64,000 nucleotides of DNA from Pseudobdellovibrionaceae bacterium (GTDB lineage: Bacteria; Bdellovibrionota; Bdellovibrionia; Bdellovibrionales; UBA1609), in assembly GCA_030591685.1 (NCBI GenBank), contig JAUVAX010000003.1, forward strand, positions 744 through 64,743, written 5' to 3'. Under the pieces are notes generated by a model that did not search any database, was not told the DNA's origin, and saw only the letters and a program-made list of their open reading frames with translations. Both the position numbers and the translations under genes were made by a program. Positions 1 to 53,828 of this stretch are shown one piece after another. How positions within the stretch are numbered: the first letter of the stretch is position 1; each line of letters begins with the position of its first letter.

Positions 1-122
1 TTAGGCAGCTAAAGGTTGTAAGTCGTTTCCAACTACAAAGTTGCTCGTTTTTATAGAGGACCTCGAGCGCCCCTGCATGCTCCCAAAAGTTTCGTCACCC
101 GTGTCGAAGCCATATCGCCCCC
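1..122 (-). ncRNA. ssrA: tmRNA (SsrA), 5' portion only; the gene continues past the window start
   Basis: The reverse complement of 1-122 reads GGGGGCGATATGGCTTCGACACGGG..GCATGCAGGGGCG..CCTCTATAAAAACGAGCAA..GTAGTT GGA AAC GAC TTA CAA CCT TTA GCT GCC TAA. This is colinear with the E. coli ssrA acceptor strand, PK1 and resume region as I recall them. The tag frame (1-30) encodes GNDLQPLAA-stop. Confidence 0.85.
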
Positions 123-151: not shown

Positions 152-179
152 AATATATTAACTAAAATGACAATGTAAA
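152..179 (-). promoter_or_regulatory. Putative sigma-70 promoter for ssrA precursor
   Basis: The minus strand has TTTACA (179-174), a 16-nt spacer and TATATT (157-152). It lies about 30 nt upstream of the mature tmRNA 5' end, consistent with a processed precursor. Confidence 0.4.
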
Positions 180-240
180 GGTAAAACAACCCCCAATAAG
201 ACTATTGAGGGCCCTTTTAGGGGCTGTACACCCCTAAGTA

Positions 241-1434
241 CTACCTATTGCCTGGTATTGGGGGCTCGCTTAAGAGTACGTCACTTATTAATAGGTCCAT
301 TAGCTCAACAGTAGAGCGGACCTCTTTAGTGATGATGATTTTGTTTTTTTCGGCCATTTTGATATTGGCTTTAATTTTTTGTGCTCTGATTTTTATTACT
401 CTCAAGCGGGCCTGCATGGACTCTTTGTTTTCACTTGTGGGGTTTTCAAGAGAGGGTTTAACTATGTTTTCATAAATAGTAAATTGCTTGTTTAATAGGG
501 TTTCTTTGGTAACTCGAATGGCTTGGCCGTCGGTGTTGACCATGCTTGCGCCCTCAGTGAGGTTTTTATTAATAAGTGTTTTAACCTGGAGCTTTGTTTG
601 CTTTTCAAAGAGGGTTTGGTAAATCTCCCTTGTACGGTCAGTGGTGAGTGGCATTTTTGCCAGCGCTTTAAAGGCCTTAGCTTTTACTTTAGGGTCTTTA
701 ATTGACTTGGCTGCTGTGGTGGCATTAGAGGCCTTTTCAAAGTAAATATTAAATCTGTTAATTTTTCTCTCATTAGAGTTTTCATTGAACGGATTAAAGC
801 TAGCCTTTGTATTATAATAAATGTCTTTAAAAGGGGTAAAGCAAAACATTTGATCAGGCTGATTTGTATATACACAGCCGGCACTTTTGAGCTCGTCTTT
901 AGCAGCAGTAATGCTTGCTGTGACCTCTTCTAAAAGGGCCTGGTCTATAAGTTCATCCATAGACGAGAGGTTCTTGTCGCCCTGATTGAGAGCTTTAAGT
1001 TTTTTATCTCGAATTTTTTTAGTGTTTAAATTAATTTGAGCCAACACTATTTTTCCTGTTAGATCAAAAGTTTTGTTTTGCACGTGGTTTAGTTTAAATT
1101 GAAGGCTTTGCCTCTCCATATCGTCAAGGTCATTGGCCTTTAAGGCCATGTTAGCCCCTGATATAAATTGATCCAAAAGAACCTTAAGGTTTTTAAGGCT
1201 TTTAATAGTCTTTTTTTCAAGATCTTTACAGATAAAATCCATTGGGATGTCTTGAGGGGTGCTGTACTCAATAAAAGAGCAACCCTGCTCATCCATAGAG
1301 GCTTGGGTGTCTAACAACGCCTGCGTGCCCTTTGTGGTGGCCTCAGGTGAGTTAACACGGGCGGCGCAACCAATAAAACTTGTTGCTGCGATAATAACGG
1401 AGATTAAAAGGGCTGATTGAGTCTTGTTTTTCAT
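241..1434 (-). CDS. Lipoprotein of unknown function, paralog A (Cys-patterned, helical)
   Basis: Signal peptide with lipobox SFIGC. Shares conserved blocks with ORF 1782-3167: EQGCSF, ICKDLEKK, AAKDELKSAGCV, YFEK, ITKE. A GGAG lies upstream of the ATG. Confidence 0.8.
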   Translation of the reverse strand: MKNKTQSALLISVIIAATSFIGCAARVNSPEATTKGTQALLDTQASMDEQGCSFIEYSTPQDIPMDFICKDLEKKTIKSLKNLKVLLDQFISGANMALKANDLDDMERQSLQFKLNHVQNKTFDLTGKIVLAQINLNTKKIRDKKLKALNQGDKNLSSMDELIDQALLEEVTASITAAKDELKSAGCVYTNQPDQMFCFTPFKDIYYNTKASFNPFNENSNERKINRFNIYFEKASNATTAAKSIKDPKVKAKAFKALAKMPLTTDRTREIYQTLFEKQTKLQVKTLINKNLTEGASMVNTDGQAIRVTKETLLNKQFTIYENIVKPSLENPTSENKESMQARLRVIKIRAQKIKANIKMAEKNKIIITKEVRSTVELMDLLISDVLLSEPPIPGNR

Positions 1435-1489
1435 TTTACGGGTACTCCAAAAATAGGGCTTATGTGGTTGTATTAATGCTACTTTTTAA

Positions 1490-1505
1490 AGCAATCGTTG
1501 TGCCA
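1490..1505 (-). promoter_or_regulatory. Sigma-54 (-24/-12) promoter of lipoprotein paralog A
   Basis: The minus strand reads TGGCACAACGATTGCT, i.e. TGGCAC-N5-TTGCT with exact GG-N10-GC spacing. It is about 55 nt upstream of the ATG at 1434. Confidence 0.7.
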
Positions 1506-1613
1506 AAGTAAGGCCGGCCCACTTAGCACTAAAGCCCTCAAACACCTTTAAGCCATGTATGTTTAACAAAGTTCTAGGCAAAAAAGGGCCCTGCCCTGTT
1601 TATTGCTGACGCC

Positions 1614-1645
1614 AAAAAAAAAGCCCCGCCCATCTTGGGCGAAGC
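1614..1645 (-). terminator. Rho-independent terminator after lipoprotein paralog B
   Basis: The minus-strand RNA GCUUCGCCCA-AGA-UGGGCGGGGC forms a 10-bp stem with two G.U pairs. It is followed by a run of nine U. Confidence 0.7.
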
Positions 1646-1781
1646 TTTAGGTGTGGGAGAGAAATCCATAACCCCTAGAGGCTTTCTAAAGATTATTTGT
1701 AAAACTTTTTTAAATTAAAGGTTGGTGCGCGAACTCACGTACTGCTCTAAGGCACACCTCTTAAAATATTAAATACTATAA

Positions 1782-3167
1782 TTAATTTTTAGCAGCCTCT
1801 TCTTCTAAAGCGTCTGCATCTATTTCTGCTGTAGTGGCGCCCTTTTCTTCAATGGGGGCGGCTAAGGCTTCTACTTCTTTAACCTCAACAACGGCTGACT
1901 CTACGGGTTTGTCATTAGTGGACTCGTCTAGTTCTGACTTCTCAGCCTTGGCCTCTTCAACTAGGGCGGCCCTTGCCGCGTTGATTTCTTCAATTTGCTT
2001 TATCACCTGGGGCTTACTGATGTTTACTTGAACTAAAAGAAGGGTCGCAACCTCAAGGCTTGACTGAGCCTCTTCGCTAATTTCAATACCGTTAGCTTGA
2101 GCTTTTTTAATGTTTGACTGTAGTAAACTCGCAGCTCTTTCGAGGCCTTCAAGTTGAGACTTCATACGGCCTAACTTAGGGCCACTAACATACTCTCTTA
2201 AGTAATGATCCACCATGTTTTTTTGCACAGTGAACTCTTGACTTAAAATAAGCTCTTTTGTGATTTCTATTTCTTCGCCCTCAGCGTTTTTTGTGTTCGA
2301 GCGTGGTAGTACGTTTTCACTGATTAGATCTTCCATAGCCTCATCTGTTTGCTGCTCAAAAAAATCTTGATACATCGCTTTTACGGCCTGAGTTAAGTCG
2401 ACAACACTTTTAAGCGCTTTGTCGGCTTCGATTTTTGATTTGCTATCTGTTATTAATTGAGCTGTTGTTTTTGCTTTTTCAATTTTTTCAAAATAAAGGT
2501 CCATGCGCTTTACTGTTCTTTCGCCTTCAGTGTCTATTTTAAGGCCCGCCATTTCGCCCACGTTTCTAAATGTGCCACGTATTAAACGACTGCACTCTAA
2601 GTCCATAGGGGCATCTAAGCTTACACAGCCCGCTTCTGTGAGTTGATCTTTTGCGGCCTGTATATAAGTGCTAACGTCTGTCACGAGCTCTTGATCAAGA
2701 AGGATCTCACCTGTTTCACCATTAACTACGGCCTTTTCTTTTAATTCAGCTAGTTTTTCATCGCGGCCTTTTTTAACTCTTGTTTTTTCAGTCACTAAAA
2801 CTATTTTATCTTGTATATAGAGAGCTCGGGCCTTGATGCTGTCTCTCTGAAGGGCTGATAAGCCCTGACGTTTTGTCACTTTATCGGCCGCATCTAAGTA
2901 CTCAACAAAAGTGGTTTTAATTTCGGCGAGCTCTTCAACTGACTTTTCTTCTAGATCCTTACATATAAGGTCAAGAGGGGCCGCCTGTAGCCTGTGAGCC
3001 TCTGTAAAAGAGCAGCCTTGCTCAGCGAGCTTGGTTTCTATTTTATTTAAGTTTTCTTTTCCTTTTTTGATTTCGCTTACTTGATCGTTTCTAGCCGCAC
3101 ATCCTATAAGGCTTGTTGAGCCAACAACTAAGGCTCCGAATACTGTTAATTGTATTATCTTTTTCAT
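1782..3167 (-). CDS. Lipoprotein of unknown function, paralog B, with acidic Ala/Glu-rich C-terminal tail
   Basis: Signal peptide with lipobox SLIGC. Carries the same conserved blocks as paralog A (EQGCSF, ICKDLEEK, AAKDQLTEAGCV, YFEK, ITKE). GGGAGA Shine-Dalgarno. Confidence 0.8.
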   Translation of the reverse strand: MKKIIQLTVFGALVVGSTSLIGCAARNDQVSEIKKGKENLNKIETKLAEQGCSFTEAHRLQAAPLDLICKDLEEKSVEELAEIKTTFVEYLDAADKVTKRQGLSALQRDSIKARALYIQDKIVLVTEKTRVKKGRDEKLAELKEKAVVNGETGEILLDQELVTDVSTYIQAAKDQLTEAGCVSLDAPMDLECSRLIRGTFRNVGEMAGLKIDTEGERTVKRMDLYFEKIEKAKTTAQLITDSKSKIEADKALKSVVDLTQAVKAMYQDFFEQQTDEAMEDLISENVLPRSNTKNAEGEEIEITKELILSQEFTVQKNMVDHYLREYVSGPKLGRMKSQLEGLERAASLLQSNIKKAQANGIEISEEAQSSLEVATLLLVQVNISKPQVIKQIEEINAARAALVEEAKAEKSELDESTNDKPVESAVVEVKEVEALAAPIEEKGATTAEIDADALEEEAAKN

Positions 3168-3208
3168 GTCGTATTTCTCCCATAAATTTTAAGTTCTATA
3201 CTTACTTG

Positions 3209-3224
3209 AGCAAGACCAGTGCCA
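3209..3224 (-). promoter_or_regulatory. Sigma-54 (-24/-12) promoter of lipoprotein paralog B
   Basis: The minus strand reads TGGCACTGGTCTTGCT, i.e. TGGCAC-N5-TTGCT with exact spacing. It is about 40 nt upstream of the ATG at 3167. Confidence 0.7.
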
Positions 3225-3600
3225 AGGTTTCACCCCACCTAACCCCTTAAAGTTACGTACACATAGGGAACTTTTAACAATTTGTGACACAAAAAATGTC
3301 ACCGTTGTTGTTTGAGGGCCGCTCCGTTTTTTTAATGCCCTTGCCCTTTAATAATCACCTGTAATTTTTTTTACGTTTTTTAAGCGGCCCTAGTCACTGG
3401 CAAGGCCTTTCACCTTAACTCGATGGCATAGGGGTCACTAGTAAACCTATGGCTCGCTATTAAAAACACCGTGCGCTCTAAGGGCTATATAAGTATGGCC
3501 GCCTTAACATCGTGATTGTGCTTGAATAAATTTTGTTTGAATTGTTTTTTAACAGTGGGCCTTGCTGCGAGCCTGAGAGTCCGGCTCTTAACGACTCTAA

Positions 3601-3972
3601 TTACTCGCCGTCCTCAATGCCTAAAAGTTCACTATCTACGGGGATCACTCCACAGGTTTGCTCTAAGAGCTCCAGTGTGTCGTTGTAGACTCTTTTTTGC
3701 CGCTGTACAACCTGCAGGGCTTTTTGCATAGATATAGATGTTTTACCCCGACGGGCTCTTTCAAAATCTTTATATGTTGTCTCTGCTCGTTGAAGCTTTA
3801 TCTCTTCGTTTTTAAGTGACTTTTCTAACCGTACAAGTTCACGGGCCAGATCAAAGCTTAAGCCCTCGTAAGACACGTCACAAACTCGGTCCTGTTGAGG
3901 CTCTGAGGTGTAAGCATAAGTCGCCCCCGGAAGGGCAAATACTACGAGTAAACTTAGTAGTGTTAATTTCAT
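3601..3972 (-). CDS. Small secreted protein, unknown function
   Basis: N-terminal signal peptide (LLVVFALPGATYA). Strong AAGGAGAG Shine-Dalgarno. Two Cys in a charged, helical-looking mature part. Confidence 0.6.
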   Translation of the reverse strand: MKLTLLSLLVVFALPGATYAYTSEPQQDRVCDVSYEGLSFDLARELVRLEKSLKNEEIKLQRAETTYKDFERARRGKTSISMQKALQVVQRQKRVYNDTLELLEQTCGVIPVDSELLGIEDGE

Positions 3973-4209: not shown

Positions 4210-5226
4210 TTAACAACAGGAGGCTTTAGACGCTGGGGGCTTAAACAAGCCCTTGTGAGCACTTTGGTCACCTTGGATTTTAAAATAATTTTTAAACCGC
4301 GTTTGCTGTAATATGTTGGCTGTATTGCCACAAACAGGCTTGGGCTTGTCTCTATTAAAGGTGTAGTTTTCGTCTAACATAAAGCTCTCAGGGCTTTCTT
4401 TTATGCCGCCAATATAGGTGGCTTGTTGGCCGTAGTCCTCTGGGCGGTCCTCAAGGCTTACTTTAAAAGCTCTCACTGTAATAGAGTAAAAATCTATGTC
4501 CTTTAACTGTTGCTCGATCTGCTTTGAGAGAAGATCTAGCTTTCTTTCGTTCACAACCCTGTAGTCGTCAACCCCTAGAGAGTTCAAAATTCGTCTGAAG
4601 TCCTCAGTGTAAAGAGCCCCGCCTAAGCATTCGCCTAATAACACCGGGTCTTTTGCTAAATGCTCTGGGATTCGGCGAGATGAAAACACATCTGAAAAGT
4701 AAAGCTCCCCACCGGGCTTTAAGACCCTGAAGATTTCTTTAAATACTTGTTCTTTGTTGTCGGCTAAATTGAGTACGCAGTTAGAGATCACAACGTCCAC
4801 AGAGTTATCCTCAATACCGAGGGCTTTTAAGTCTTCCATGAACCCGTACTTAAACTCAACGTTAGGGGCTGAAAGTTCGAATTGTTTTTGGTGGTACTCA
4901 ATGTGGCTCTCGGCGACTTTGATTTGCTCTTTAGTCATATCAACGCCAATAACTCGGCCCTCAGGCCCTACGAGTTTTGAGGCTATAAATACATCTCGCC
5001 CCGTACCCGAGCCTAAGTCTAAAACTGTTTTGCCCTCAAGTACAAAAGGGATCGGAGACCCGCAGCCATAAAACTTATCTAATACCTCGGTGTGAATTTT
5101 GCTCATTATAGGCTTTAGGTAGCTGGGCATAGACTCTGCCGTACAGCAAGCTGTTGTTTGCAGGTCTTCTTTAGAGCTTAATACTTTGCCGTAATAGTCT
5201 TGTATGTTTTCAGTGTTTGATTTCAA
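4210..5226 (-). CDS. arsM: Arsenite S-adenosylmethionine methyltransferase (ArsM family)
   Basis: SAM motif I VLDLGSGTGRD. Cysteines in the ArsM-typical contexts: ACCT, FYGCGSP, ISNCVLNL, LLGECLGGAL. Sits 24 bp downstream of arsS on the same strand. Confidence 0.75.
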   Translation of the reverse strand: MKSNTENIQDYYGKVLSSKEDLQTTACCTAESMPSYLKPIMSKIHTEVLDKFYGCGSPIPFVLEGKTVLDLGSGTGRDVFIASKLVGPEGRVIGVDMTKEQIKVAESHIEYHQKQFELSAPNVEFKYGFMEDLKALGIEDNSVDVVISNCVLNLADNKEQVFKEIFRVLKPGGELYFSDVFSSRRIPEHLAKDPVLLGECLGGALYTEDFRRILNSLGVDDYRVVNERKLDLLSKQIEQQLKDIDFYSITVRAFKVSLEDRPEDYGQQATYIGGIKESPESFMLDENYTFNRDKPKPVCGNTANILQQTRFKNYFKIQGDQSAHKGLFKPPASKASCC

Positions 5227-5250
5227 GGTGGTTCTCCTTTAAAAAAGTTT

Positions 5251-6210
5251 TTAAGTTAATGTCCCGCCACATGAGCTGCCAGCACCGGCTGTGCAACCAT
5301 AACAGTGGTCCGCTAAAGCTATTTTAGTTTTTTGAAACTCGCTAAGAGTCTCAATATCCCAAAGGGATGTTTTTTTATTTGCAATGGGTATTTCTAACAT
5401 TTGGTTAAAATCGCAATCATAAACAAACCCGTCCCAGCTAATTGAAACAAGCTCCCTACACATCACAGCACCTGCTGCTTGAGCGTTAAAGCTATTAACT
5501 AAGAGCTGTGAGTACTCTTCGTACTTGCCTTGCCTTTTAAGGTCTTGGAGAAATCTTTTTATTGGCATGTTGGTGATCGTGTAAAGGTTGTTAAAGGAAA
5601 TATTAAATAACTCTTTGAGTTCCGTTTTGTATTGGGCTTGCAGCGTTTGCTCGTCAGGGGGTAAAAATGGCCCCAAGGGGTTGTAGACTAAATCAAGCTC
5701 TAACCCGGTGCCCTCTTTAGCGTAGCCTAAGTTGTTTAATATTTTTAACGCCTCTATGCTTTTGCCAAAGACCCCGCGGCCCCTTTGTTGTTCGACGTTT
5801 TCTTTTGTATAACAGGGCAGTGAGGCCACTACCTTTACCTGATTGTCCGCTAAAAACGCGGGGGTGTCTTTTTGGCCGGGCTCAAAAAAGACCGTCAAAT
5901 TACAACGGTCAATAACTTGCTTGTTGCGTGCACGTAACTCAGTGACGAAGTAAAAAAAGTGCTCGTTCATTTCAGGGGCACCGCCGGTAATGTCTACCGC
6001 AGTGATTGCTGGCGAGGCATCAATAAGCTCTAATAAACGTTGAACTGTTTTTTTAGTCATGTTTTCAGTGCGCTTTGGGCCGGCCTCAACATGACAATGC
6101 AAACAGGCCTGGTTGCAGAGCTTGCCAATATTAACCTGTAAGGTCGTGACCGGTTTGCGGCTTAAATCGACCCCTGATTTTTTAATTGTCTGTGCAAACG
6201 AAGTGAGCAC
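5251..6210 (-). CDS. arsS: Radical SAM / Cys-rich C-terminal protein, ArsS-type (arsenosugar biosynthesis family)
   Basis: CX3CX2C radical-SAM motif CNQACLHC. Cys-rich C-terminus DHCYGCTAGAGSSCGG, typical of the ArsS family. GTG start preceded by GGAGG. Confidence 0.7.
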   Translation of the reverse strand: MLTSFAQTIKKSGVDLSRKPVTTLQVNIGKLCNQACLHCHVEAGPKRTENMTKKTVQRLLELIDASPAITAVDITGGAPEMNEHFFYFVTELRARNKQVIDRCNLTVFFEPGQKDTPAFLADNQVKVVASLPCYTKENVEQQRGRGVFGKSIEALKILNNLGYAKEGTGLELDLVYNPLGPFLPPDEQTLQAQYKTELKELFNISFNNLYTITNMPIKRFLQDLKRQGKYEEYSQLLVNSFNAQAAGAVMCRELVSISWDGFVYDCDFNQMLEIPIANKKTSLWDIETLSEFQKTKIALADHCYGCTAGAGSSCGGTLT

Positions 6211-9542: not shown

Positions 9543-10289
9543 GTGAAGTTTTTAATTTTTTCGACTTTATTATTTTATTCTTTCACTCAGGCTACGGCCC
9601 AACCAATGACTGATGCTGAGCTAAAGGCTCTTTTAAAAAAAGTAGACCGCATTTATCGCTCCGACACTAGCCACTCCACAATGACAATGAAAATTAAAAC
9701 CCCCCAGTTTGAGCGATCACTCACTATGGAGAGCTGGACAAGGGGGCTTGATTACACTTTTATGACTATCCTGGCCCCGGTTAAAGATAAGGGCATTAGT
9801 ACGTTAAAACGAAAATCGAAGATGTGGAATTACTTTCCAAAAATTAATAAGGTCATAAAAATACCCCCTTCGATGATGTTGAGCTCTTGGATGGGCTCTG
9901 ATTTTACAAATGACGACTTTGTAAAGGAAAGCTCCTATCAAGACGATTACTTTGCAAAACTATTAAAGCGCACTAAAGTGATGGTCTCTATTGAGCTCAC
10001 CCCAAAAAGCGATACCAGCTCACTTTGGGGCAAGGTTATTATCGATATACATGCCGCCAAGTACTACCCCATAAAGCAAGTTTTTTACGATGAAAGTGGC
10101 GAGAAAATAAGAACCCTTGAGTTTAGCCATGTTAAAGCCCTAGGGGCTCGCATGGTCCCCATGAAAATGACCCTCACGCCTCATCATAAAAAAGACCAAT
10201 ATACTGAAATCTTATATAATAAAATTGATTTCGATGTGCCCCTGAAGGCCTCTGTTTTTACTCGGAGAAATCTGCAAAAGAGGAGATAG
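9543..10289 (+). CDS. LolA-like outer membrane lipoprotein-sorting family protein
   Basis: Signal peptide. Family-typical stretch KGISTLKRKSKMWNYFPKINKVIKIP...WMGSDFTNDDF. First gene of a tightly packed five-gene operon. Confidence 0.7.
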   Translation: MKFLIFSTLLFYSFTQATAQPMTDAELKALLKKVDRIYRSDTSHSTMTMKIKTPQFERSLTMESWTRGLDYTFMTILAPVKDKGISTLKRKSKMWNYFPKINKVIKIPPSMMLSSWMGSDFTNDDFVKESSYQDDYFAKLLKRTKVMVSIELTPKSDTSSLWGKVIIDIHAAKYYPIKQVFYDESGEKIRTLEFSHVKALGARMVPMKMTLTPHHKKDQYTEILYNKIDFDVPLKASVFTRRNLQKRR

Positions 10290-10293
10290 TTTT

Positions 10294-11505
10294 TTGATTT
10301 TCAAACTCGCCCTAAGAAATATTTTTAGGCAAAAGCGGCGCACTGTTTTAACTATAATGATGATGTGCTTTGGCTACACGCTATTGGCCTTCACCTATGC
10401 CCTCAGTGAGGGCAGTTATAATAGCATTATTGAGGCGTTCACTTCTCAATCAACGGGGCATCTGCAAATCCATAATAAGTCTTACCTTGAAAATCAAAAC
10501 CTTTTTTATAGTATTACTGATGCCCCTAAAATGATTCAAAACCTTGAGCGTGATAAAAGCATCAAAGCTGTTTCGGCCCGAATTACGGGGGGCGCTTTGG
10601 CCTTTGCCAATAATAAAACAGCGGGCGTAAAAATTGTTGGTTTTAATGCCCTTAAGGAGCAAGCCCTCACCCATTACGAAAACAGAGTTTTTGAAAAAGA
10701 TAGCACCATCAATGGACCCTCTGGCACTTATGTTTATATAGGTAAAAAGGTGGCTCGCATTTTAAAGCTTAAGCTCGGTGACTCGTTGGCTATGATCTCA
10801 AGTGGGGTCGACGGCTCCATTGCCAATGATTTATACACAGTCAAAGGCATTATGAAAGGCTCGCCTTTTGACGACAACAGTGTTTATTTGGGCCTTAATG
10901 CCGCTCAGGAGTTTTTTAGCCTTCACAACCAGGTGACCCATGTTTCTGTTTTACTACACAACATTGGCTCCTTCCCTGCTGCGGTAAATCGTATGGCCCC
11001 ACTTTTATCAAACACTAAATACATTGTTCGCCCTTGGCAAAAGATAGAGTCTAGTTTTTACAAAGCGATGGAGGCCGACAAAAAAGGCAATACCATAACA
11101 GAGTTAATTATAGTCTTAATGGTAAGTATTGGGGTGTTAAACACTATTTTAATGTCCATGCTAGAGCGAACCCGCGAATTTGGTCTTTTAAAGGCCCTCG
11201 GCACAAAACCCCTGCAACTCGCCGGGATGGTCACTCTCGAGGTACTGTTGACCTCTTTTATAAGCCTCGCCATTGGCGTCGTGCTTGCCTATGCGGTAAT
11301 TTATTATTTTTCAATTTTCGGTATTCAGTACTCTGAACCCATGACCTATGGGGGGATGACCTTTTCAGAGCTCACTGTTGAGTTTTCTACAAAGGCCTTT
11401 TTGCGGCCTGCTGTGGTTATTTTATTATCAAGCGCATTAGTAGCTCTAGTCCCTAGTTATAGAGTTTTAAAACTCAAGCCCATTGATGGCTTAAAGGATT
11501 TTTAA
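10294..11505 (+). CDS. ABC transporter permease, FtsX/MacB/LolC-E type (1 of 2)
   Basis: N-terminal TM, a large extracytoplasmic domain, then the C-terminal FtsX TM bundle (REFGLLKALGTKP). 4-nt gap to the upstream gene. Confidence 0.8.
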   Translation: MIFKLALRNIFRQKRRTVLTIMMMCFGYTLLAFTYALSEGSYNSIIEAFTSQSTGHLQIHNKSYLENQNLFYSITDAPKMIQNLERDKSIKAVSARITGGALAFANNKTAGVKIVGFNALKEQALTHYENRVFEKDSTINGPSGTYVYIGKKVARILKLKLGDSLAMISSGVDGSIANDLYTVKGIMKGSPFDDNSVYLGLNAAQEFFSLHNQVTHVSVLLHNIGSFPAAVNRMAPLLSNTKYIVRPWQKIESSFYKAMEADKKGNTITELIIVLMVSIGVLNTILMSMLERTREFGLLKALGTKPLQLAGMVTLEVLLTSFISLAIGVVLAYAVIYYFSIFGIQYSEPMTYGGMTFSELTVEFSTKAFLRPAVVILLSSALVALVPSYRVLKLKPIDGLKDF

Positions 11506-12735
11506 ATGATTGGGCTACCTTTGTTTTTAAAACTCGGACTTAGAAACGTTTTTAGAAACAAACGTCGATCAGCCCTTGGTGCCTTTGCCGTAGGCATAGG
11601 CTTGGCCTCTCTTATTACCGCCGATGGGTTTATGAGGGGTATGGAGCAAAACTTAATAAAGCTCACCACCACATCTCTTTTGGGCGAGGGGCAGGTTCAC
11701 AATAGAGCGTTCGTTGAAACTATGGACTCTGACTTTCCCATTGCTGAGCCTTTAAAAACCGAGGCTCTTATAAAAAGTGACCCACACGTTGTGGCCTATT
11801 CTAAACGCGTTTTATCTTTAGGCATGGTGGCCTCAACGAAGAGTTCAAAAAATATTCTAATCTACGGCATTAACGGCGAAAAAGAAAAGCAAGTGAACTC
11901 TGTGCATCGATTTATCTCAGCAGGTCGGTTTATTACGCACAAAAAAGATCTTGTACTTGGCCAGCGTTTAGCTAAAAAACTTGATGTTCAACTTAATGAC
12001 AAGGTTACTATTACGACAAGTGAGGCTCACACGGGCGAGTTGGCACAGGCGGTATTTAGAGTCTCGGGGTTTATACACTTTGGCTCTAAAGAGATTGATG
12101 AGGGCCTCGTCTTTATACATTATAAAGCCGCACAAGATCTTCTTGGCATAGGTCATGAGTTTCATGAAATTGTATTAAAATTTGACTCTCTTAAAGCAGC
12201 CTCTGATAAAAACCTGACCACGTGGGCAGCCCTATCAAGTCAGCATAATATCGCTGAGTCTTACAGAAGCCTAGCCCCAGGCATGGATTTTATGACCGAA
12301 ATGATGGGCTTAAGCTCTTTAATTATGGGGTCTATACTTGGGGTTTTAGTCGCCCTTGGGATTATGAATACCCTGTTTATGTCTATCTTTGAGCGACTTT
12401 TTGAGTTTGGCGTTTTAAGGGCTATCGGCACTAGAGGTCTAGATATTTTTAAAATGATTTTATGGGAAGCCTTTTTTTTAGGCCTACTCAGTGTTGTTGC
12501 CGGGTTTTTTATGGCTCTTATTTTTGCCGGCTACCTGGGGGTTTATGGTGTCGATTATGGAGGTATTGAGTTTAATGCCGTCACTTTTAGAGAGCCCATT
12601 TATTACCTCTTTCAATGGTCCCATGTTTGGCTGCTACCTGCGGTCTTAATTATTTTTATTTTAATAACCGCCATTTACCCCGCAATATATGCGGCTCGAT
12701 TAACCTTAAGCGATGCTATGAAAAAATCATTATAG
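11506..12735 (+). CDS. ABC transporter permease, FtsX/MacB/LolC-E type (2 of 2)
   Basis: Same architecture as the first permease (FEFGVLRAIGTRG). The ATG directly abuts the preceding TAA. Confidence 0.8.
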   Translation: MIGLPLFLKLGLRNVFRNKRRSALGAFAVGIGLASLITADGFMRGMEQNLIKLTTTSLLGEGQVHNRAFVETMDSDFPIAEPLKTEALIKSDPHVVAYSKRVLSLGMVASTKSSKNILIYGINGEKEKQVNSVHRFISAGRFITHKKDLVLGQRLAKKLDVQLNDKVTITTSEAHTGELAQAVFRVSGFIHFGSKEIDEGLVFIHYKAAQDLLGIGHEFHEIVLKFDSLKAASDKNLTTWAALSSQHNIAESYRSLAPGMDFMTEMMGLSSLIMGSILGVLVALGIMNTLFMSIFERLFEFGVLRAIGTRGLDIFKMILWEAFFLGLLSVVAGFFMALIFAGYLGVYGVDYGGIEFNAVTFREPIYYLFQWSHVWLLPAVLIIFILITAIYPAIYAARLTLSDAMKKSL

Positions 12736-12744
12736 GTAAACACT

Positions 12745-13440
12745 ATGGATAACGAAATTATTTACGATGTAAGAAATTTAAATAAAGTCTTTGGCGCTAA
12801 CGAGAACACTAAAGTGTACGCCAACCGTAATATCAACTTAAAGGTCCGGCGAGGGGAGTTTATGGCGATCATTGGCCCCTCTGGGTCTGGCAAGTCAACG
12901 CTATTAAACATTATTAGTGGGCTCGACACCCCCACTTCTGGCGAAATACATTTATCTGGTCGGCTTATGTCAAAACTCTCCGGCTCAGAGCTCGCCCAGT
13001 TTAGACGAGACCATATTGGGTTTATTTTTCAAGCCTATAACTTAATACCCGTTTTAACGGTCACTGAAAATATTGAGTATGTTTTAGTCCTTCAGGGTAA
13101 AACAAAACCTCAAAGAGAGGCCGCTGTTAAAGAAATTTTAAACCTTGTGGGCCTTAGTGGTTTTGAGCATAGGCTACCAGCAGAGCTCAGCGGCGGACAA
13201 CAGCAACGAGTAGCGGTCGCCCGTGCCGTTGTTACAAAACCAGATATTATTTTAGCCGACGAGCCCACGGCAAACTTAGACTCTAAAACCGGAGAGGAGT
13301 TGATAGACATGATGCTCGAGTTAAACAAAAAATATAAGACCACTTTTATTTTCTCTACCCACGATCAAATGATCATGCGTAAGGCCCGAAGGCTTGTAAC
13401 ACTTAAAGATGGGGCTGTTTTATCTGATGAAACGCGCTAG
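12745..13440 (+). CDS. ABC transporter ATP-binding protein (LolD/MacB-type)
   Basis: Walker A GPSGSGKST, signature LSGGQQQRVAVARA, Walker B IILADEPT. Confidence 0.9.
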   Translation: MDNEIIYDVRNLNKVFGANENTKVYANRNINLKVRRGEFMAIIGPSGSGKSTLLNIISGLDTPTSGEIHLSGRLMSKLSGSELAQFRRDHIGFIFQAYNLIPVLTVTENIEYVLVLQGKTKPQREAAVKEILNLVGLSGFEHRLPAELSGGQQQRVAVARAVVTKPDIILADEPTANLDSKTGEELIDMMLELNKKYKTTFIFSTHDQMIMRKARRLVTLKDGAVLSDETR

Positions 13441-14599
13441 TTTATTATTTTTTATTTTTTTCGGCCTTTACCCCTTAACAGGATTCGCGTTAGAGACTCG
13501 TGGGTACACTATACTACAGGCCTCCTCAGCGGGTCTCCGGACAAGTGTTCAAAAAAATGTGTTTGCTCATTTTGAACTCGCCAACATTAACCGCCTTAAC
13601 CTACTTCATGAAAGTAGCGGCATGACTTATGAGCTCGGCCTTGAGCTCAACCAAATCTACGAAACAAACGATCTCACGCAAAGCTCTCCGTACAGTAATT
13701 TAAAAACCCCTTACCGCATTTTTAGAGAAAACCCTGTTTTAAACCTAACCACTTTAGAGCAGGATAACTATTTACTCTTAGGCCAGGTTGATAGGCTTAC
13801 TTTAGAGTACCAAGGGCTAAGCTCTTCTTTTATTTTTGGGCGACAACAGATTAGTTTTGGGGCCTCTAAGTTTGTGTCCCCCCTTGATGTTTTTGCCCCC
13901 AACAACCCCTCTAGCATAAACACTGAGGAGCGCTCCGGGGTCGACGCTGCACGATTTAAAACCTCTATTGGCGAAATGGGTGAGTTTGGCCTTGGGGTCG
14001 TGATGGGGCAAAACTTAAGCGAAAAAAAATCGGCCGCTTTTTTAAACCTCAAATACAGCTTTTATAATATTGAGTTCGAGGCCTTAGCGGCTCGCTACTT
14101 ACAGGTAAATATGCTCGGCCTTCAGGTGCTTAAATCTATTTACGGTACTAATACATGGATAGAGTTGGCTTATAATGAGGGTCAATACACTCGATTTACC
14201 GTGGGCACTGAGTACCAGTGGTCCCCTCGGTTTTATACCGCTGCCGAGTATCACTATAATGGCGCTGGTAAATCTGAGGTTTCAGGTTATCCTTTGGCCC
14301 TTGCCGAGTTTTCGTTCACTTCAGTGTCTGTTTTTTTACTCTCAAAAAATTACTTAAACGTATTGTTGGGGTATCAGCTCTCCCCACTTACGTTTTTATC
14401 TGGCAGGCTAACAAGTAACCTACTAGATCACTCTTACTTATTTAGCCTTGGGGCTACAAAAAGCTTAAGCAATAACTCTCAAAATGACTTTGGGATTACG
14501 TTAGGTATGGGCCCCAAAGGCTCGTCATTAAGCCTTGTGCTCTCTGAGTTTGGGCACTACGGTGCTCAGGCCTACTATAAATATAAATACTTTTTCTAG
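13427..14599 (+). CDS. Predicted outer-membrane beta-barrel protein
   Basis: The ATG at 13427 gives the signal peptide MKRASLLFFIFFGLYPLTGFA. Alternating beta-strand pattern and a C-terminal YKYKYFF aromatic terminus. Overlaps the ATPase stop by 14 nt. Confidence 0.65.
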   Translation: MKRASLLFFIFFGLYPLTGFALETRGYTILQASSAGLRTSVQKNVFAHFELANINRLNLLHESSGMTYELGLELNQIYETNDLTQSSPYSNLKTPYRIFRENPVLNLTTLEQDNYLLLGQVDRLTLEYQGLSSSFIFGRQQISFGASKFVSPLDVFAPNNPSSINTEERSGVDAARFKTSIGEMGEFGLGVVMGQNLSEKKSAAFLNLKYSFYNIEFEALAARYLQVNMLGLQVLKSIYGTNTWIELAYNEGQYTRFTVGTEYQWSPRFYTAAEYHYNGAGKSEVSGYPLALAEFSFTSVSVFLLSKNYLNVLLGYQLSPLTFLSGRLTSNLLDHSYLFSLGATKSLSNNSQNDFGITLGMGPKGSSLSLVLSEFGHYGAQAYYKYKYFF

Positions 14600-20004: not shown

Positions 20005-20376
20005 ATGAGTATTAGATTAGTCATCGTAGATGACGCTCCGTTCATCAGAGAAGTCATTAGAAACCTTGCTGTTGAAAATGGCATTGAGGTCGTTGGAGAG
20101 GCTCAAAATGGCCTGGACGCCGTTGAGGTTGTAAAAAAAACCAACCCTGAGGTCGTAATTATGGACGTTGTCATGCCTGGTAAAAACGGCATTGAGGCGA
20201 CAAAGGAAATTTTAACAATATATCCAGAAACCAGAATCATCGCTTGCTCCACACTTGAACAGTCTTCAATGATTTTAAATGCTATTCAGGCTGGCTGCTG
20301 CGATTTTGTTCGAAAACCCTTTAAAAAAGAAGATTTACTAACCAGTATTAAAAATAGCGTAAAGGCAATGGTCTAA
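20005..20376 (+). CDS. Single-domain response regulator (CheY-like receiver)
   Basis: IVDDAPF acidic pocket, phospho-acceptor context VIMDVVMPGKNG, conserved Lys in RKPF. Confidence 0.85.
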   Translation: MSIRLVIVDDAPFIREVIRNLAVENGIEVVGEAQNGLDAVEVVKKTNPEVVIMDVVMPGKNGIEATKEILTIYPETRIIACSTLEQSSMILNAIQAGCCDFVRKPFKKEDLLTSIKNSVKAMV

Positions 20377-21331: not shown

Positions 21332-21379
21332 TAACTTGAGGCCTAACTTGAGGCCTCACCTGAAGTGTCACCTGAGGCT
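21332..21379. repeat. Four tandem 12-bp units (TAACTTGAGGCC x2, TCACCTGAAGTG, TCACCTGAGGCT)
   Basis: Read directly from the sequence. The last unit overlaps the stop codon of the sigma-54 activator gene. Confidence 0.8.
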
Positions 21380-22925
21380 ATTTAGCGATTTTTCTTTTAT
21401 CTAGGTTGTACTTTTCAACCTTCATAATAAGCCCTGCGCGACTGATGCCGAGCTCTTTTGCGAGTTTTGACTTGTTCCACCCGGTACGCCTTAAGCCGTC
21501 TCGAATCATTTGGCGCTCTAACTCTTCAAGAGCATCTTTGAGCTTGCCGTGCATGCGCGCCCCTTGAACCTTGCCCTTTTCGCTAGCTTCTATTATTTTC
21601 CCTGAAAGCATTTCAGGGACTATTTTTGTCTCTGCCCCCGTTAGCACAACGAGACGTTCAATTTCGTTTTGTAGTTCACGAACATTCCCCGGCCAAGCGT
21701 AGTCATAAAGCTTCTCAAGGGCTCTTTTTGTAATGGTTTTTGCTATGTTGCCTTTGGCTGACTCTTGTAAAAAGAAATCACAAAGTAAGGGGATGTCCTC
21801 TTTACGCTCTTTTAACGAAGGGACCTGCACGTTAATAACATTAAGTCGATAGTAAAGATCCTCTCTAAAAGTACCTTGCTCTACCATCTCTTTTAAATTT
21901 CTATTTGTAGCGGCAATAACTCTAACATTAGAGTGTCTAATTTCAGTTGACCCTACGGGGGTAAAAGTCCCCTCTTGTAAGGCCCTTAAAAGCTTAACCT
22001 GCATGGCGGGGGAGGTGTCCCCGATTTCATCTAAAAAGAAGGTCCCCTTATCGGCCATTTGAAACAAACCAAGTTTATCTTTAATGGCCCCGGTAAAAGA
22101 GCCCTTCATGTGGCCAAAAAGCTCTGACTCTAGAAGGTTATCATTAAACGCTGAGCAGTTTTGTATAATAAACGGCTTGTCTTTTCTCAATGAATTATAA
22201 TGTATGGCTTTTGCGATGAGCTCTTTACCCGTACCGTTTTCACCTTGAATTAAAATCGTCGAATCAGCAGCCCTTAATTTATCTAACAAGTTATATAGGT
22301 CTTGCATGGGCTTAGACTTACCGATCATGTTGTCGTATTTGTAGCGGCTCCCGAGCTCTTTATTAAGTTCTTTAATGCGGCTTTCTCTAGAGGAGATTTC
22401 AACATGTAACGTCACAACCTCTTCGGCAACAAGTGAAACCAGGTCTGTAAAATGTTGCCTGTCTGCATCGTCAATGTATTTCATTTTTGCAATAGATTGT
22501 TCAATTATATCATTACTGGCACCGAACACAGCGAGGCGCTCTCGAATATCGGCGAGCCTGTTGGGCTGGTTATCTTTTAAAAACCCAAGGGCTATAACTG
22601 TGCCCATAAAATCATTATCAATAACTATAGGGGTGATCGTCATGTCATAACCGGTAGCATCCCATTTACGAACACTATAGTTGCTTTCAGAGTGTCTTAA
22701 TTCGTCAACGGCCTGCCCTGCAATTTCGTGCAATGACTCGCGCATGGACTCTTTTTCTAAAAAAACATGTGTAGATGGGTTATAAAATTTTGTTTTACTG
22801 GGCTCGTAGCCCTTAAGCTTGCCCTGTTCGTCTGTAAAAATAATATCAACATTCCACCAAGAGCCTAAAACTTCTTTTAGTTTCTTGATCACGTGTATAT
22901 GCTCAAACTCTTCCCAGTTAATCAC
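21378..22925 (-). CDS. Sigma-54-dependent transcriptional activator (bacterial enhancer-binding protein) with non-receiver N-terminal sensor domain
   Basis: Walker A GENGTGKE, GSFTGA (GAFTGA variant), Walker B FFLDEIGD, C-terminal Fis-type HTH LAKELGISRAGLIMKV. I moved the start to GTG 22925 (AAGGGGA plus 6 nt). The track start at 23024 is a TTG without a Shine-Dalgarno. Confidence 0.85.
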   Translation of the reverse strand: MINWEEFEHIHVIKKLKEVLGSWWNVDIIFTDEQGKLKGYEPSKTKFYNPSTHVFLEKESMRESLHEIAGQAVDELRHSESNYSVRKWDATGYDMTITPIVIDNDFMGTVIALGFLKDNQPNRLADIRERLAVFGASNDIIEQSIAKMKYIDDADRQHFTDLVSLVAEEVVTLHVEISSRESRIKELNKELGSRYKYDNMIGKSKPMQDLYNLLDKLRAADSTILIQGENGTGKELIAKAIHYNSLRKDKPFIIQNCSAFNDNLLESELFGHMKGSFTGAIKDKLGLFQMADKGTFFLDEIGDTSPAMQVKLLRALQEGTFTPVGSTEIRHSNVRVIAATNRNLKEMVEQGTFREDLYYRLNVINVQVPSLKERKEDIPLLCDFFLQESAKGNIAKTITKRALEKLYDYAWPGNVRELQNEIERLVVLTGAETKIVPEMLSGKIIEASEKGKVQGARMHGKLKDALEELERQMIRDGLRRTGWNKSKLAKELGISRAGLIMKVEKYNLDKRKIAK

Positions 22926-23181
22926 GCCCGGTCCCCTTAGTCTTGGCCCTTTTGGCCCATTTACTAAAGGGCTTATCGTCAAAAATTTAGACAACTTTAA
23001 GACTGTACATAATAAATTAGACAATTATTTTTGATTTTGATTTTTTTTGAGTCATAACTCATCAGGCTTCGCCTCACTCTGAGATCATGAACAAAAAGCA
23101 AAGTGCACAGGAGGGTTTTATGCTCGTGGACTCGGTGGGCCGCAAGGCGGCCCACTCAAAAATTTTTTTGCTTTGAATCTC

Positions 23182-24018
23182 TTATTGAGCCACTTTGTGA
23201 GTGTCGTTTGAACCTGTGGACCCTGGGGAGCTGGCGGCCCTAACTTTAGCCGCTTGCCTTTTAGCAAGCACGTTGTGCTGCCCGCGCGGTATTTGACCAA
23301 AAACAAGTTTAATACTTGATACATCAAAAGCAAAACCTTTAGTCGCCTGCACGGGGGTTGGCACAAGCTGTGTTTGAATTTTTTGTACCGGGGACTCTGT
23401 AATAAGTATTTCACCTGTTTTTGTTAAGTTACTAATATACTTTAAGCCTTTAAATTCATTAAGAACCCTGAGTATGCCCTTGCCCTCAAACCCTGGTTGT
23501 TCTTTTATGTAGGCTTGACCGGAGTGAACTTCGGCGTCCTCTTCGCTAATGGCCTTAAAGCTAAATTTTTTACCCGGCGTCAACCCATGTTGCAACATTA
23601 AGAACACTTGAAAAGTACTTAAAAATACCCCCTTAGGGATATTACGGGCCACCTGAGAGTTTGTTTTGCCGTCACTAATGACGGCCGACATTTTCAAGCC
23701 TGACTTTGTTTTTGTAAACTTAGCGTCTATGGTTTTAATTTTTTTATTCATTTTTGAGGTGTGTTGATAACTGATGGGTTTAAACTGTTGATCGGCCACC
23801 GCCACTAAGCTCTCTACTAAGTTACCAGCCTGAGCATTGCCCCGAATATAGCTTTTAGATATAAAGTGCTTTTTTTTATTATCATACTCATAACTTAAAA
23901 TGACATACCCAATGGGCTTGTTTGAGGCCAAGAGCCTATAGTAGCCATCAAAAATAATATCATTTTTAGCCTGAGCGGTGGCTGTGGCTAGGATTATTAA
24001 AAAAATTATAAATTTCAT
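23182..24018 (-). CDS. Secreted protein, unknown function
   Basis: Signal peptide FIIFLIILATATAQA. No recognised domain. Confidence 0.6.
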   Translation of the reverse strand: MKFIIFLIILATATAQAKNDIIFDGYYRLLASNKPIGYVILSYEYDNKKKHFISKSYIRGNAQAGNLVESLVAVADQQFKPISYQHTSKMNKKIKTIDAKFTKTKSGLKMSAVISDGKTNSQVARNIPKGVFLSTFQVFLMLQHGLTPGKKFSFKAISEEDAEVHSGQAYIKEQPGFEGKGILRVLNEFKGLKYISNLTKTGEILITESPVQKIQTQLVPTPVQATKGFAFDVSSIKLVFGQIPRGQHNVLAKRQAAKVRAASSPGSTGSNDTHKVAQ

Positions 24019-49266: not shown

Positions 49267-49585
49267 AGTGAACCCCTATATACTTTTTTAATTTTTCAGC
49301 CTGATTCTTCTATACAATAACTGAGCCTCAGAATCATAAAATCACTTAAAAACCCATGTCAATATTGTTAGCATCTCACTAAAAACCAGTCACTCCTTGC
49401 GTGCTTATTTTACCTAGTATTTCCGTATAGTTACTGAGATCTGCCGTTTGTAGTGTCTAATAAGTTGATGTTCGTGAAATTGGCCCCCCAATAAGCCTTT
49501 AATATTACTCAGGAGTTTTGAGCCTATTTTTGGCACATACTTTGTATCATTAAGTAGTAAGTTTAAGTAATGGGGGTTCTTTAAA

Positions 49586-50050
49586 ATGAAAACTAAACAC
49601 TCTTTGAAGCTATATATTACGGCCATTAGCGCGCTCTCACTTTTAGCGCTTTTTGGTGTATTTGGCGTTCTTCACGCTCCAACAAAAACTTATGTGCAGC
49701 AGCTGTTAAATCCGGCTCCTCGCAAAGTTCTCTCAACAGCTGAGGGTCGACTTTTTGATGGTCGGCCTATTAAGGTGATAAAGGTTGTTTCCAGTTCAGG
49801 GTTGTTTATTGAAATTTATGATTTTTCAAAAAAGACAATACACCCCCTCATTGACCGAATTCGATTACCTGATAAAAACGATGGCTTTATAAATTTTAAT
49901 GGGGCCGCCGTTAACCTCGTACTCTTTGATGTGGATGGGGATCAACAAAGCGAGATCATTGCGCCAAGCTTTGGTAGCAACCTCGTCGCACACATGAATG
50001 TCTACACTTATAACGTAGAAACAAAAACCTTTGAGCTTAAAAATAATTAA
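49586..50050 (+). CDS. Membrane-anchored protein with FG-GAP/VCBS-like motif, unknown function
   Basis: N-terminal TM (ITAISALSLLALFGVFGVL). FDVDGDQQSEIIAP motif. Confidence 0.5.
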   Translation: MKTKHSLKLYITAISALSLLALFGVFGVLHAPTKTYVQQLLNPAPRKVLSTAEGRLFDGRPIKVIKVVSSSGLFIEIYDFSKKTIHPLIDRIRLPDKNDGFINFNGAAVNLVLFDVDGDQQSEIIAPSFGSNLVAHMNVYTYNVETKTFELKNN

Positions 50051-51259: not shown

Positions 51260-52324
51260 CTAGTTACCTTCAGGCTGGTTGTTTCGCAAATCACGCCAAG
51301 ACTTGCCCTTGCGCGCAGCCCTGTTCATTTGAAACTCTCTCACCGCTCGGTTGTGCTGCCGTAGATTACTTGAAAAATAACTAGTCCCATCATTTCGACT
51401 TACAAAATATAAATAATTTGTCCGTGCAGGGAGTACGGCCGCTAAAAGAGCCTCTTTACCCGGGTTTGAAATAGGGCCATAAGGCAACCCCTTAAAGGTA
51501 TAGGTGTTGTACTTGTTTTTTCGTAGCAGGTCTTTTTTTGTAATATTTTTTTTCTCTTTTTTGGTTTTATCAAGTATCCCATAGAGCACGGTGGGGTCTG
51601 TTTGAAGTCTCATGTTTTTTTTCAACCGGTTATGGAAAACAGAAGAGATATATTTTCTCTCCTTTTTGTATCCTGTTTCTTTCTCAACAATGCTCGCAAG
51701 GATTACCCACTCATGCCGTGAAAACTGCGCACGATTGTATTTTTTTAATTCTTCATAAGTTTTCAAAAAACGCGCTACCATTAGGCGAACCAAGGACTCA
51801 TGGTTGTCTGATTTTGTGTAGCTATATGTCTCGGGGAACAAATATCCCTCTAGAGACGGCTGCGCCTCACCAAGAGTGTCCCTGATAAATTTTTGATTAT
51901 GAACGAGGGTTAAAAAACTTTTTTTACTCCCAAGCCCTTTTGCCTCAAAGATCTCTCCGATTGTGTACATGTTAATACCTTCAGGGATTGTCACGGAATA
52001 AGCGACTGACTTTCCTGAAGAGAGCACCTCTAAAATTTGAACAGGGGTCATTCCTCGATTTATTTGATATTCACCGGCTTGAATTTTTTTTGTTTGATCT
52101 GTTATCCTTCCCAGGATTTTTAACAGTAAAGCGCTGCTAATAAGACCTGTCTTTTCAAGCCTTGAGGAAATAGCGCCAAAGGGCTCCCCTTTTTTTACAT
52201 CAAACAATACCGCATCGTTAACTAAGCCTGGGGGCACTAATAAGAAGTGACCAAAGCTAACGAGCACAAACACACACCCCGTTATAAATAATAAAACTAT
52301 GTATTTCATACGCTTATCTCTCAC
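51260..52324 (-). CDS. mltG: Endolytic murein transglycosylase MltG (YceG family)
   Basis: N-terminal TM, then IPEGINMYTIGEIF, LEGYLFPETY, ILASIVEKE and YNTY motifs. Start is GTG 52324 (GTGA overlap with astD) or ATG 52309. Confidence 0.85.
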   Translation of the reverse strand: MRDKRMKYIVLLFITGCVFVLVSFGHFLLVPPGLVNDAVLFDVKKGEPFGAISSRLEKTGLISSALLLKILGRITDQTKKIQAGEYQINRGMTPVQILEVLSSGKSVAYSVTIPEGINMYTIGEIFEAKGLGSKKSFLTLVHNQKFIRDTLGEAQPSLEGYLFPETYSYTKSDNHESLVRLMVARFLKTYEELKKYNRAQFSRHEWVILASIVEKETGYKKERKYISSVFHNRLKKNMRLQTDPTVLYGILDKTKKEKKNITKKDLLRKNKYNTYTFKGLPYGPISNPGKEALLAAVLPARTNYLYFVSRNDGTSYFSSNLRQHNRAVREFQMNRAARKGKSWRDLRNNQPEGN

Positions 52325-53817: not shown

Positions 53818-53828
53818 CGAACCTCTCC

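Follow-up and report, generated by a model that had tools for sequence, protein, structure and literature searches.

Paralogous Lipoprotein Genes behind Predicted Sigma-54 Promoters in a Pseudobdellovibrionaceae Bacterium

Introduction

A 64,000-nucleotide stretch of the genome of a Pseudobdellovibrionaceae bacterium (assembly GCA_030591685.1, contig JAUVAX010000003.1, positions 744 to 64,743), referred to below as the window, carries near its start two adjacent genes whose products look like lipoproteins. The locus raises a simple question: what kind of proteins do these genes, here named A and B, encode, and what switches them on? A sequence-only reading of this DNA, made by a model without database searches, had proposed that the two are paralogs outside any characterised family, each behind its own sigma-54 promoter. 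The analysis reported here suggests that A and B are transcribed separately, as two units that depend on sigma-54 (RpoN), and that they encode paralogous, inducible envelope lipoproteins, an explanation that we regard as likely.

A Pair of Paralogous Lipoprotein Genes

Gene A (241–1434, minus strand) encodes a 397-residue lipoprotein precursor without a family match, and gene B (1782–3167, minus strand) encodes a paralogous precursor of 461 residues. Both open reading frames (ORFs) are present exactly where the sequence-only reading had placed them, in tandem and in the same orientation, separated by 347 bp. The paralogy that it had proposed is borne out by a BLASTP alignment of 395 amino acids with 33% identity and 55% positives (E = 2e-65). 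At the N-terminus of each product a basic n-region is followed by a hydrophobic stretch and then by a lipobox, MKNK...SFIG/C23 in A and MKK...SLIG/C23 in B, the slash preceding the lipobox cysteine. Such a signal peptide combined with the pattern [LVIF][ASTVI][GAS]C is found in A, in B and in their only detected relative, the protein P0003 described below. In a regular-expression search, A and B turned out to be the sole lipobox matches among all ORFs of the window.

Five cysteines occupy invariant columns of the A/B alignment: the lipobox C23 and, in A numbering, C52, C69, C187 and C198. The four downstream of the lipobox, whose equivalent positions had been pointed out before, form two pairs, C52/C69 and C187/C198 in A and C52/C69 and C181/C192 in B. 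They sit in the conserved blocks EQGCSF, ICKDLE-K and AAKD-L--AGCV. These blocks were listed in the sequence-only reading and are all present, as is YFEK; the last block on that list holds only approximately, since A reads VTKETLLNKQFT and B reads ITKELILSQEFT.

The two proteins differ at the C-terminus and in charge. Alignment and composition delimit a tail that belongs to B only, encoded at 1782–1991 (minus strand). It had been estimated at about 70 residues and measures 69, of which 30% are Asp or Glu and 23% are Ala; A and P0003 lack it. Mature A is basic, with an isoelectric point (pI) of 9.25, whereas the core of B is acidic (pI 5.1). With one paralog basic and the other acidic, A and B may work together as a complementary pair.

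By sequence comparison, A and B are the only members of the family in the window. The neighbouring ORF 3601–3972 (minus strand) encodes a secreted protein of 123 residues, which has a signal peptide as well as two cysteines and belongs to no family. It was considered as a third member and rejected, being unrelated to A or B.

Predicted Sigma-54 Promoters

The pattern TGGCAC-N5-TTGCT has just two exact matches on both strands of the 64-kb window (128 kb), at 1490–1505 and 3209–3224 on the minus strand, one before each gene. The near-consensus -24/-12 elements reported for A and B are thus real as sequence patterns; the 18-mers quoted for them in the sequence-only reading span 1489–1506 and 3208–3225. 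When the pattern was loosened to TGGCAY-N5-TTGCW, the same number of sites, 2, was observed against 0.08 expected in shuffled sequences. Both strands were also scanned with a weighted extended consensus, YTGGCACG-N4-TTGCW. The two sites are the best on either strand, with scores of 16.8 (A, the top of the window) and 16.5 (B) out of a maximum of 17.3; the next site reaches 15.0. As 18-mers, the predicted promoter of A reads TTGGCACaacgaTTGCTT (1489–1506, minus strand) and that of B reads TTGGCACtggtcTTGCTC (3208–3225, minus strand).

The geometry is that of a sigma-54 promoter. The distance from the GG of the -24 element to the GC of the -12 element is exactly 10 nt, and the C of the -12 element lies 56 nt before the ATG of A and 42 nt before that of B, on the coding strand. 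The -12 GC of promoter A falls at 1492–1491, which would place the transcription start at about 1479 and leave a 5' untranslated region of about 45 nt. For promoter B the corresponding values are 3211–3210, about 3198 and about 31 nt. Both predicted leaders are unstructured, and a GGAG ribosome-binding site precedes each ATG by 9–10 nt. A scan with the sigma-70 consensus found no sigma-70-like promoter in the upstream region of either gene.

The intergenic DNA flanking the two promoter cores can no longer be aligned between A and B, and the proteins themselves have diverged to 33% identity. An 11-base core that is identical in both promoters against such a background suggests that it has been kept by selection and is not residual similarity left from the duplication.

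A third, weaker sigma-54-like site, TTGGCACatactTTGTAt, occurs at 49530–49547 (plus strand), where GT replaces the GC of the -12 element. The ATG of ORF 49586–50050 follows 38 nt downstream, a geometry that resembles promoters A and B. This ORF encodes a protein of 154 residues that begins with a membrane anchor or signal peptide and matches no Pfam family.

A Distant Homolog with a Similar Predicted Promoter

A profile search with HMMER, run exhaustively over 1.84 billion representative proteins, found besides A and B a single relative, P0003, a protein of 357 residues with a marginal E-value of 9e-4. Its lipobox (GLVG/C, read onwards as LVG/C-AKR), its first cysteine pair and the motif ICKDLDKKS are in register with A and B; the second cysteine pair is missing. 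Compared directly with the contig that carries P0003, B shows 29% identity over 111 residues (E = 5e-7). These similarities make P0003 a credible distant homolog of A and B.

The contig of P0003 is an unrelated, AT-rich metagenome contig of 1.3 kb (L001) that retains 74 nt upstream of the gene. In this short segment the sequence TGGCATgttgaTTGCT (TGGCAT-N5-TTGCT) ends 34 nt before the ATG, the same distance as counted from the C of its -12 element. The site lies on the coding strand with the same exact 10-nt spacing and is the top-scoring one on the contig. Among 20,000 random 74-mers of equal composition, not one scored as high. We take this predicted promoter to be the main new evidence, an independent prediction of the sigma-54 hypothesis that came true. 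In the literature, no mention of the sample accession of P0003 was found.

A Protein Family Barely Sampled So Far

When 5.8 billion protein clusters were searched by word index, A, B and P0003 each retrieved only themselves. No further relatives appeared in a scan of 185,579 species genomes (one genome per species), and none was found in the metagenomes of the Joint Genome Institute (JGI), which were scanned twice, the second time with P0003 as a confirming sequence. The claim that A and B belong to no characterised family stands after profile searches of Pfam, NCBIfam, PHROGs, PADLOC and PDB, which placed neither protein. The best Pfam match has E = 0.12, below the family cut-off; NCBIfam and PADLOC give no match, and PDB sequences give none at E ≤ 10. 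In PHROGs nothing falls below E = 0.028, and the match at this value covers the signal peptide. Judged by these searches, A and B together with P0003 form an orphan lipoprotein family of three known sequences that is invisible to current family databases. Since the family has three members, covariation and synteny evidence is not obtainable.

This isolation has to be read against the sampling of the lineage. Among about 15 billion proteins, the GroEL, Frr, PyrH and UppS sequences found here are all singletons at the 90% identity level, and the lineage is therefore very poorly sampled. The orphan status of A and B is thus partly a sampling effect, as they would be fast-evolving envelope proteins of a poorly sampled lineage. 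An exact copy of Frr occurs on a short Logan contig (L082, SRR18920793). A literature search for sigma-54-dependent lipoproteins in Bdellovibrio-like organisms found nothing.

Terminators and Transcription Units

The intrinsic terminator of gene B occupies 1611–1648 (minus strand) and consists of a 13-bp stem, a 3-nt loop and a U9 tail. The strong terminator proposed between the genes therefore exists, with coordinates slightly different from the 1614–1645 given in the sequence-only reading: the stem, at 1620–1648, precedes a run of nine U (-20.2 kcal/mol, z = -3.5). A second small hairpin follows it in the interval between B and A. Directly 3' of the gene A stop codon and upstream of the promoter of the next gene, which encodes transfer-messenger RNA (tmRNA), two terminator-like stem-loops lie at 186–237 (minus strand; -27.7 kcal/mol, z = -3.6). 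With a promoter for each gene, a terminator between them and stem-loops after A, the anatomy is that of two monocistronic units, in agreement with the two independent sigma-54 units originally proposed.

A non-coding RNA in the intergenic regions was considered and rejected. The only Rfam match, to suhB/mmgR at 1608–1676 (minus strand), is below threshold (E = 0.09; 23.7 bits, where the gathering score is 41) and coincides with the gene B terminator; most likely it is just the terminator hairpin.

Candidate Activator Sites and an Enhancer-Binding Protein

If the promoters are used as predicted, sigma-54 RNA polymerase would wait as a closed complex on TGGCAC-N5-TTGCT. Both genes would remain silent until an ATP-dependent bacterial enhancer-binding protein (bEBP), bound upstream, remodels this complex. 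Candidate elements for its binding would be the 11-mer TGTTTGAGGGC at both genes and the palindrome GTGACA-N7-TGTCAC at B. The palindrome, at 3284–3302 (no strand assigned), had been noted in the sequence-only reading; it is indeed exact and unique in the window, with its centre at about -95 from the predicted start of B. Its role as an activator site is speculative because it lies upstream of B only. Binding sites of bEBPs are expected about 70–150 bp upstream.

The 11-mer is the one exact word of this length common to both upstream regions, and these two are its only exact copies in the window. The first (1534–1544, minus strand) lies at about -60 of promoter A, and the second (3309–3319, plus strand) at about -116 of promoter B, adjoining the palindrome. 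With up to one mismatch allowed, five matches occur in the window against 1.4 expected. Two one-mismatch copies, at 23482–23492 (minus strand) and 23919–23929 (plus strand), lie inside ORF 23182–24018, directly upstream of a bEBP gene, and may be coincidental. TGTTTGAGGGC is therefore treated here as a candidate cis-element only.

The bEBP in question is encoded by ORF 21378–23024 (minus strand). The protein combines an intact interaction domain, Sigma54_activat (E = 1.7e-68), with an AAA lid and a Fis-type helix-turn-helix, and carries a GSFTGA version of the GAFTGA loop that contacts sigma-54. The presence of this domain and loop in the window suggests that this genome uses sigma-54. No Pfam family matched the N-terminal sensory region of about 230 residues. 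The gene is the nearest bEBP gene, lies 18 kb from A and B, with none adjacent to them, and nothing links its product specifically to the pair. A stand-alone response regulator gene is located near it, at 20005–20376.

Predicted Localisation and Structure

After Sec export the products of A and B would receive a lipid on Cys23 of the lipobox (F/L-I-G-C) and would be tethered to an envelope membrane. Ala occupies position +2; under the rule known from E. coli this would favour the outer membrane. Lipidation, disulfides and localisation are all predictions from the primary structure. The mature proteins would consist mostly of long alpha-helices with short beta-hairpins, two of them flanked by the conserved cysteine pairs. 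In both AlphaFold2 models, long helices are broken by short beta-hairpins that coincide with these pairs; the modelled strands in A are 52–55/66–69 and 187–189/196–198. In the periplasm the hairpins at C52–C69 and C187–C198 are probably closed by disulfides.

In Foldseek searches against PDB (run twice) and against the viral structures of BFVD, no match was better than E = 0.05. The resulting lists contain spectrin repeats, designed bundles, 14-3-3 proteins, chemoreceptors and several ClyA/Mak/Xax toxins. As these are generic helical proteins at noise level, no fold was assigned. When three segments were compared by hhalign, the two cysteine hairpins appeared alike (E = 0.007 over 24 columns), a weak signal. 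They may be duplicated modules; an internal repeat architecture was considered and is not claimed, as this hint is insufficient.

Genomic Neighbourhood

The window is ordinary chromosome. Recent horizontal transfer of the locus was rejected: its GC content of 0.40–0.43 equals the window mean of 0.42, and islands integrate at the 3' end of ssrA, whereas A and B are located before its 5' end. The 5' part of this tmRNA gene (ssrA) is found at 1–122 (minus strand; Rfam, 55 bits), cut by the edge of the window, with a sigma-70-like promoter, TTTACA-16-TATATT, just upstream of it at 152–179 (minus strand). On the other side, an ORF-free gap of 375 bp separates promoter B from ORF 3601–3972.

Directly upstream of the locus is an arsenic gene pair (4210–6210, minus strand). 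One gene encodes an ArsS radical S-adenosylmethionine protein of the arsenosugar type (TIGR04167, E = 3e-134), in the cysteine and not the selenocysteine form. Beside it lies an ArsM-like methyltransferase that scores below the NCBIfam cut-offs. The best relatives of ArsS, at 62–63% identity, come from Bacteriovorax, Bdellovibrionales and Bacteriovoracia metagenome-assembled genomes. A synteny search of 80 ArsS loci showed that the ArsS–ArsM pair alone is conserved, and an A/B-like ORF was present at none of them. It follows that A and B do not belong to the arsenic cluster.

An operon at 9543–14599 (plus strand), 6 kb from A and B, encodes a LolA-like protein, two MacB/FtsX-type permeases, an ABC ATPase and then a 396-residue protein that matches no family. 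The operon may serve the export of lipoproteins or of envelope components. The window also contains genes for GroEL, a TadE/G-like pilus protein and an M23 peptidase, as well as priA, the series rpsB-tsf-pyrH-frr-uppS-cdsA, and rseP. At 51260–57561 (minus strand) lies an arginine succinyltransferase (AST) cluster with genes for an aminotransferase, an M20 peptidase-like protein, AstA and an aldehyde dehydrogenase; next comes a YceG/MltG gene. In E. coli the AST operon is sigma-54/NtrC-dependent; the sigma-54 scan of the window found no strong -24/-12 site at this cluster.

Weighing the Explanations

Several observations weigh against the proposal of sigma-54-driven envelope lipoproteins. The dependence on sigma-54 in vivo is itself a prediction from DNA sequence, and rpoN is not among the annotated ORFs of the window. 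Nothing like GTGACA-N7-TGTCAC occurs upstream of gene A, and the two copies of TGTTTGAGGGC stand at unequal distances from promoters A and B and in opposite orientations relative to them; there appears to be no activator site common to both genes in a convincing geometry. No homolog, domain or conserved neighbour narrows down what the proteins do. Furthermore, the AlphaFold2 models, computed from alignments of two and three sequences, have a predicted local distance difference test score (pLDDT) of only 50 and 56. At such low confidence, the helix-and-hairpin architecture and the disulfides are only suggestive.

Four other explanations were considered and all were rated low. The -24/-12 matches could be coincidental, vestigial or simply unused, with A and B being transcribed from unrecognised promoters of the sigma-70 or extracytoplasmic function (ECF) type. 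The absence of rpoN from the window speaks for this, and so does the fact that promoter scans yield consensus matches and nothing else. However, two exact matches were found where about 0.08 were expected, both correctly placed and oriented, a third precedes the sole distant homolog with a score that no random sequence out of 20,000 attained, and the consensus scan revealed no sigma-70-like site upstream. We thus regard unused sites as very unlikely. It is also decidedly unlikely that B and A form a single operon transcribed mainly from promoter B, in which the site before A would be a weak internal promoter or a relic of the duplication. Tandem genes in the same orientation, 347 bp apart, would fit such an arrangement, and intrinsic terminators can leak. 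Yet a GC-rich 13-bp stem with a U9 tail (-20 kcal/mol) and then a second small hairpin stand between the genes, and the supposed relic has the best score of the window, 16.8 of 17.3.

The other two explanations concern what the proteins do. A and B could be sigma-54-induced envelope-stress factors, either analogues of ZraP/CpxP/Spy or Psp or cysteine-based sensors like RcsF and NlpE. Both zraP and pspA are classic sigma-54 targets, and the Lys/Glu-rich, predicted helical and predicted exported proteins with their conserved cysteine pairs would suit such a role. Nevertheless, neither protein has an LTXXQ motif or a Pfam or NCBIfam match to the ZraP/CpxP/Spy, Psp, RcsF or NlpE families, and both have three to four times the size of ZraP or RcsF, so that this role is unlikely. 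A last idea is that they are membrane-active effectors used against prey, akin to pore-forming toxins of the alpha-helical type (ClyA, Mak, Xax, Ahl) or to colicins. MakB, MakE, XaxB, AhlB, ClyA and colicin Ia turn up as weak Foldseek matches, the model shows a helical bundle together with beta-hairpins, and the ArsS/ArsM neighbours are best matched in Bacteriovorax and Bdellovibrionales. The matches are at noise level, however: Foldseek E-values in these comparisons are 0.09 or higher and template modelling (TM) scores are below 0.25 for models with pLDDT of 50–56, and the same lists are full of spectrin, 14-3-3 proteins and designed bundles. MakB, XaxB, AhlB and ClyA themselves appear at E ≥ 0.3 and TM ≤ 0.16, which does not indicate a ClyA-type fold. 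Moreover, no hydrophobic beta-tongue is evident and a lipid anchor is atypical for this class of toxins, which makes this idea extremely improbable.

Comparison with Known Systems

Taken as sigma-54-dependent units, A and B can be compared with established sigma-54/bEBP promoters such as glnAp2, pspA and zraP of E. coli. They share the GG-N10-GC spacing, the extended consensus and a position about 40–60 nt before the ATG, and a bEBP is encoded in the same genome window. In contrast to those systems, A and B lack an adjacent bEBP gene, and their family has not previously been linked to sigma-54.

On the protein side, the signal peptide and the lipobox [LF]-[IV]-G-C of A, B and P0003 are those of classical lipoproteins, the substrates of Lgt, LspA and Lnt. 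Additional conserved cysteine pairs, compatible with periplasmic disulfides, also suit this class. RcsF and NlpE are sensor lipoproteins that also have a cysteine pattern, a loose analogy. A and B show no similarity to them or to other lipoprotein families of Pfam and NCBIfam, and they are much larger and predicted to be mostly alpha-helical. ZraP, CpxP and Spy are helical, charged and periplasm-facing, as A and B are predicted to be, and zraP is sigma-54-dependent. These proteins have about 120–140 residues and carry an LTXXQ motif, whereas A and B have 375–440 residues, a predicted lipid anchor and cysteine hairpins, and neither the motif nor a Pfam match.

Control of cell-exterior components, lipoproteins included, by sigma-54 is an established theme (Francke et al. 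2011, PMC3162934). A and B would fit this theme, and the related Borrelia case, as exported, lipid-anchored envelope proteins under predicted sigma-54 control. Unlike the lipoproteins of the Rrp2-RpoN-RpoS pathway of Borrelia, which are controlled indirectly via RpoS, A and B have -24/-12 elements directly before them, and the proteins are unrelated.

Concluding Remarks

Most likely, A and B serve as an inducible, lineage-specific envelope or surface module that is switched on by a specific signal. One can go further and imagine that A, B and P0003 are founders of an undescribed fold, and that the oppositely charged paralogs form a heteromeric device of the envelope or surface. It would be turned on by a dedicated sigma-54 activator at a particular stage of the life cycle, such as prey contact or membrane attack, of a deep-branching Bdellovibrionota-related lineage. 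We consider this picture far-fetched.

The regulatory logic proposed for the locus is textbook; what is new is an orphan three-member protein family from a poorly sampled lineage. The finding neither opens nor settles a larger question. In general, the sites before A, B and P0003 are very clean predicted sigma-54 promoters and should be a useful seed for defining the RpoN regulon of this lineage. The proteins would deserve characterisation should they turn out to be envelope components that a predatory bacterium makes at a specific stage.

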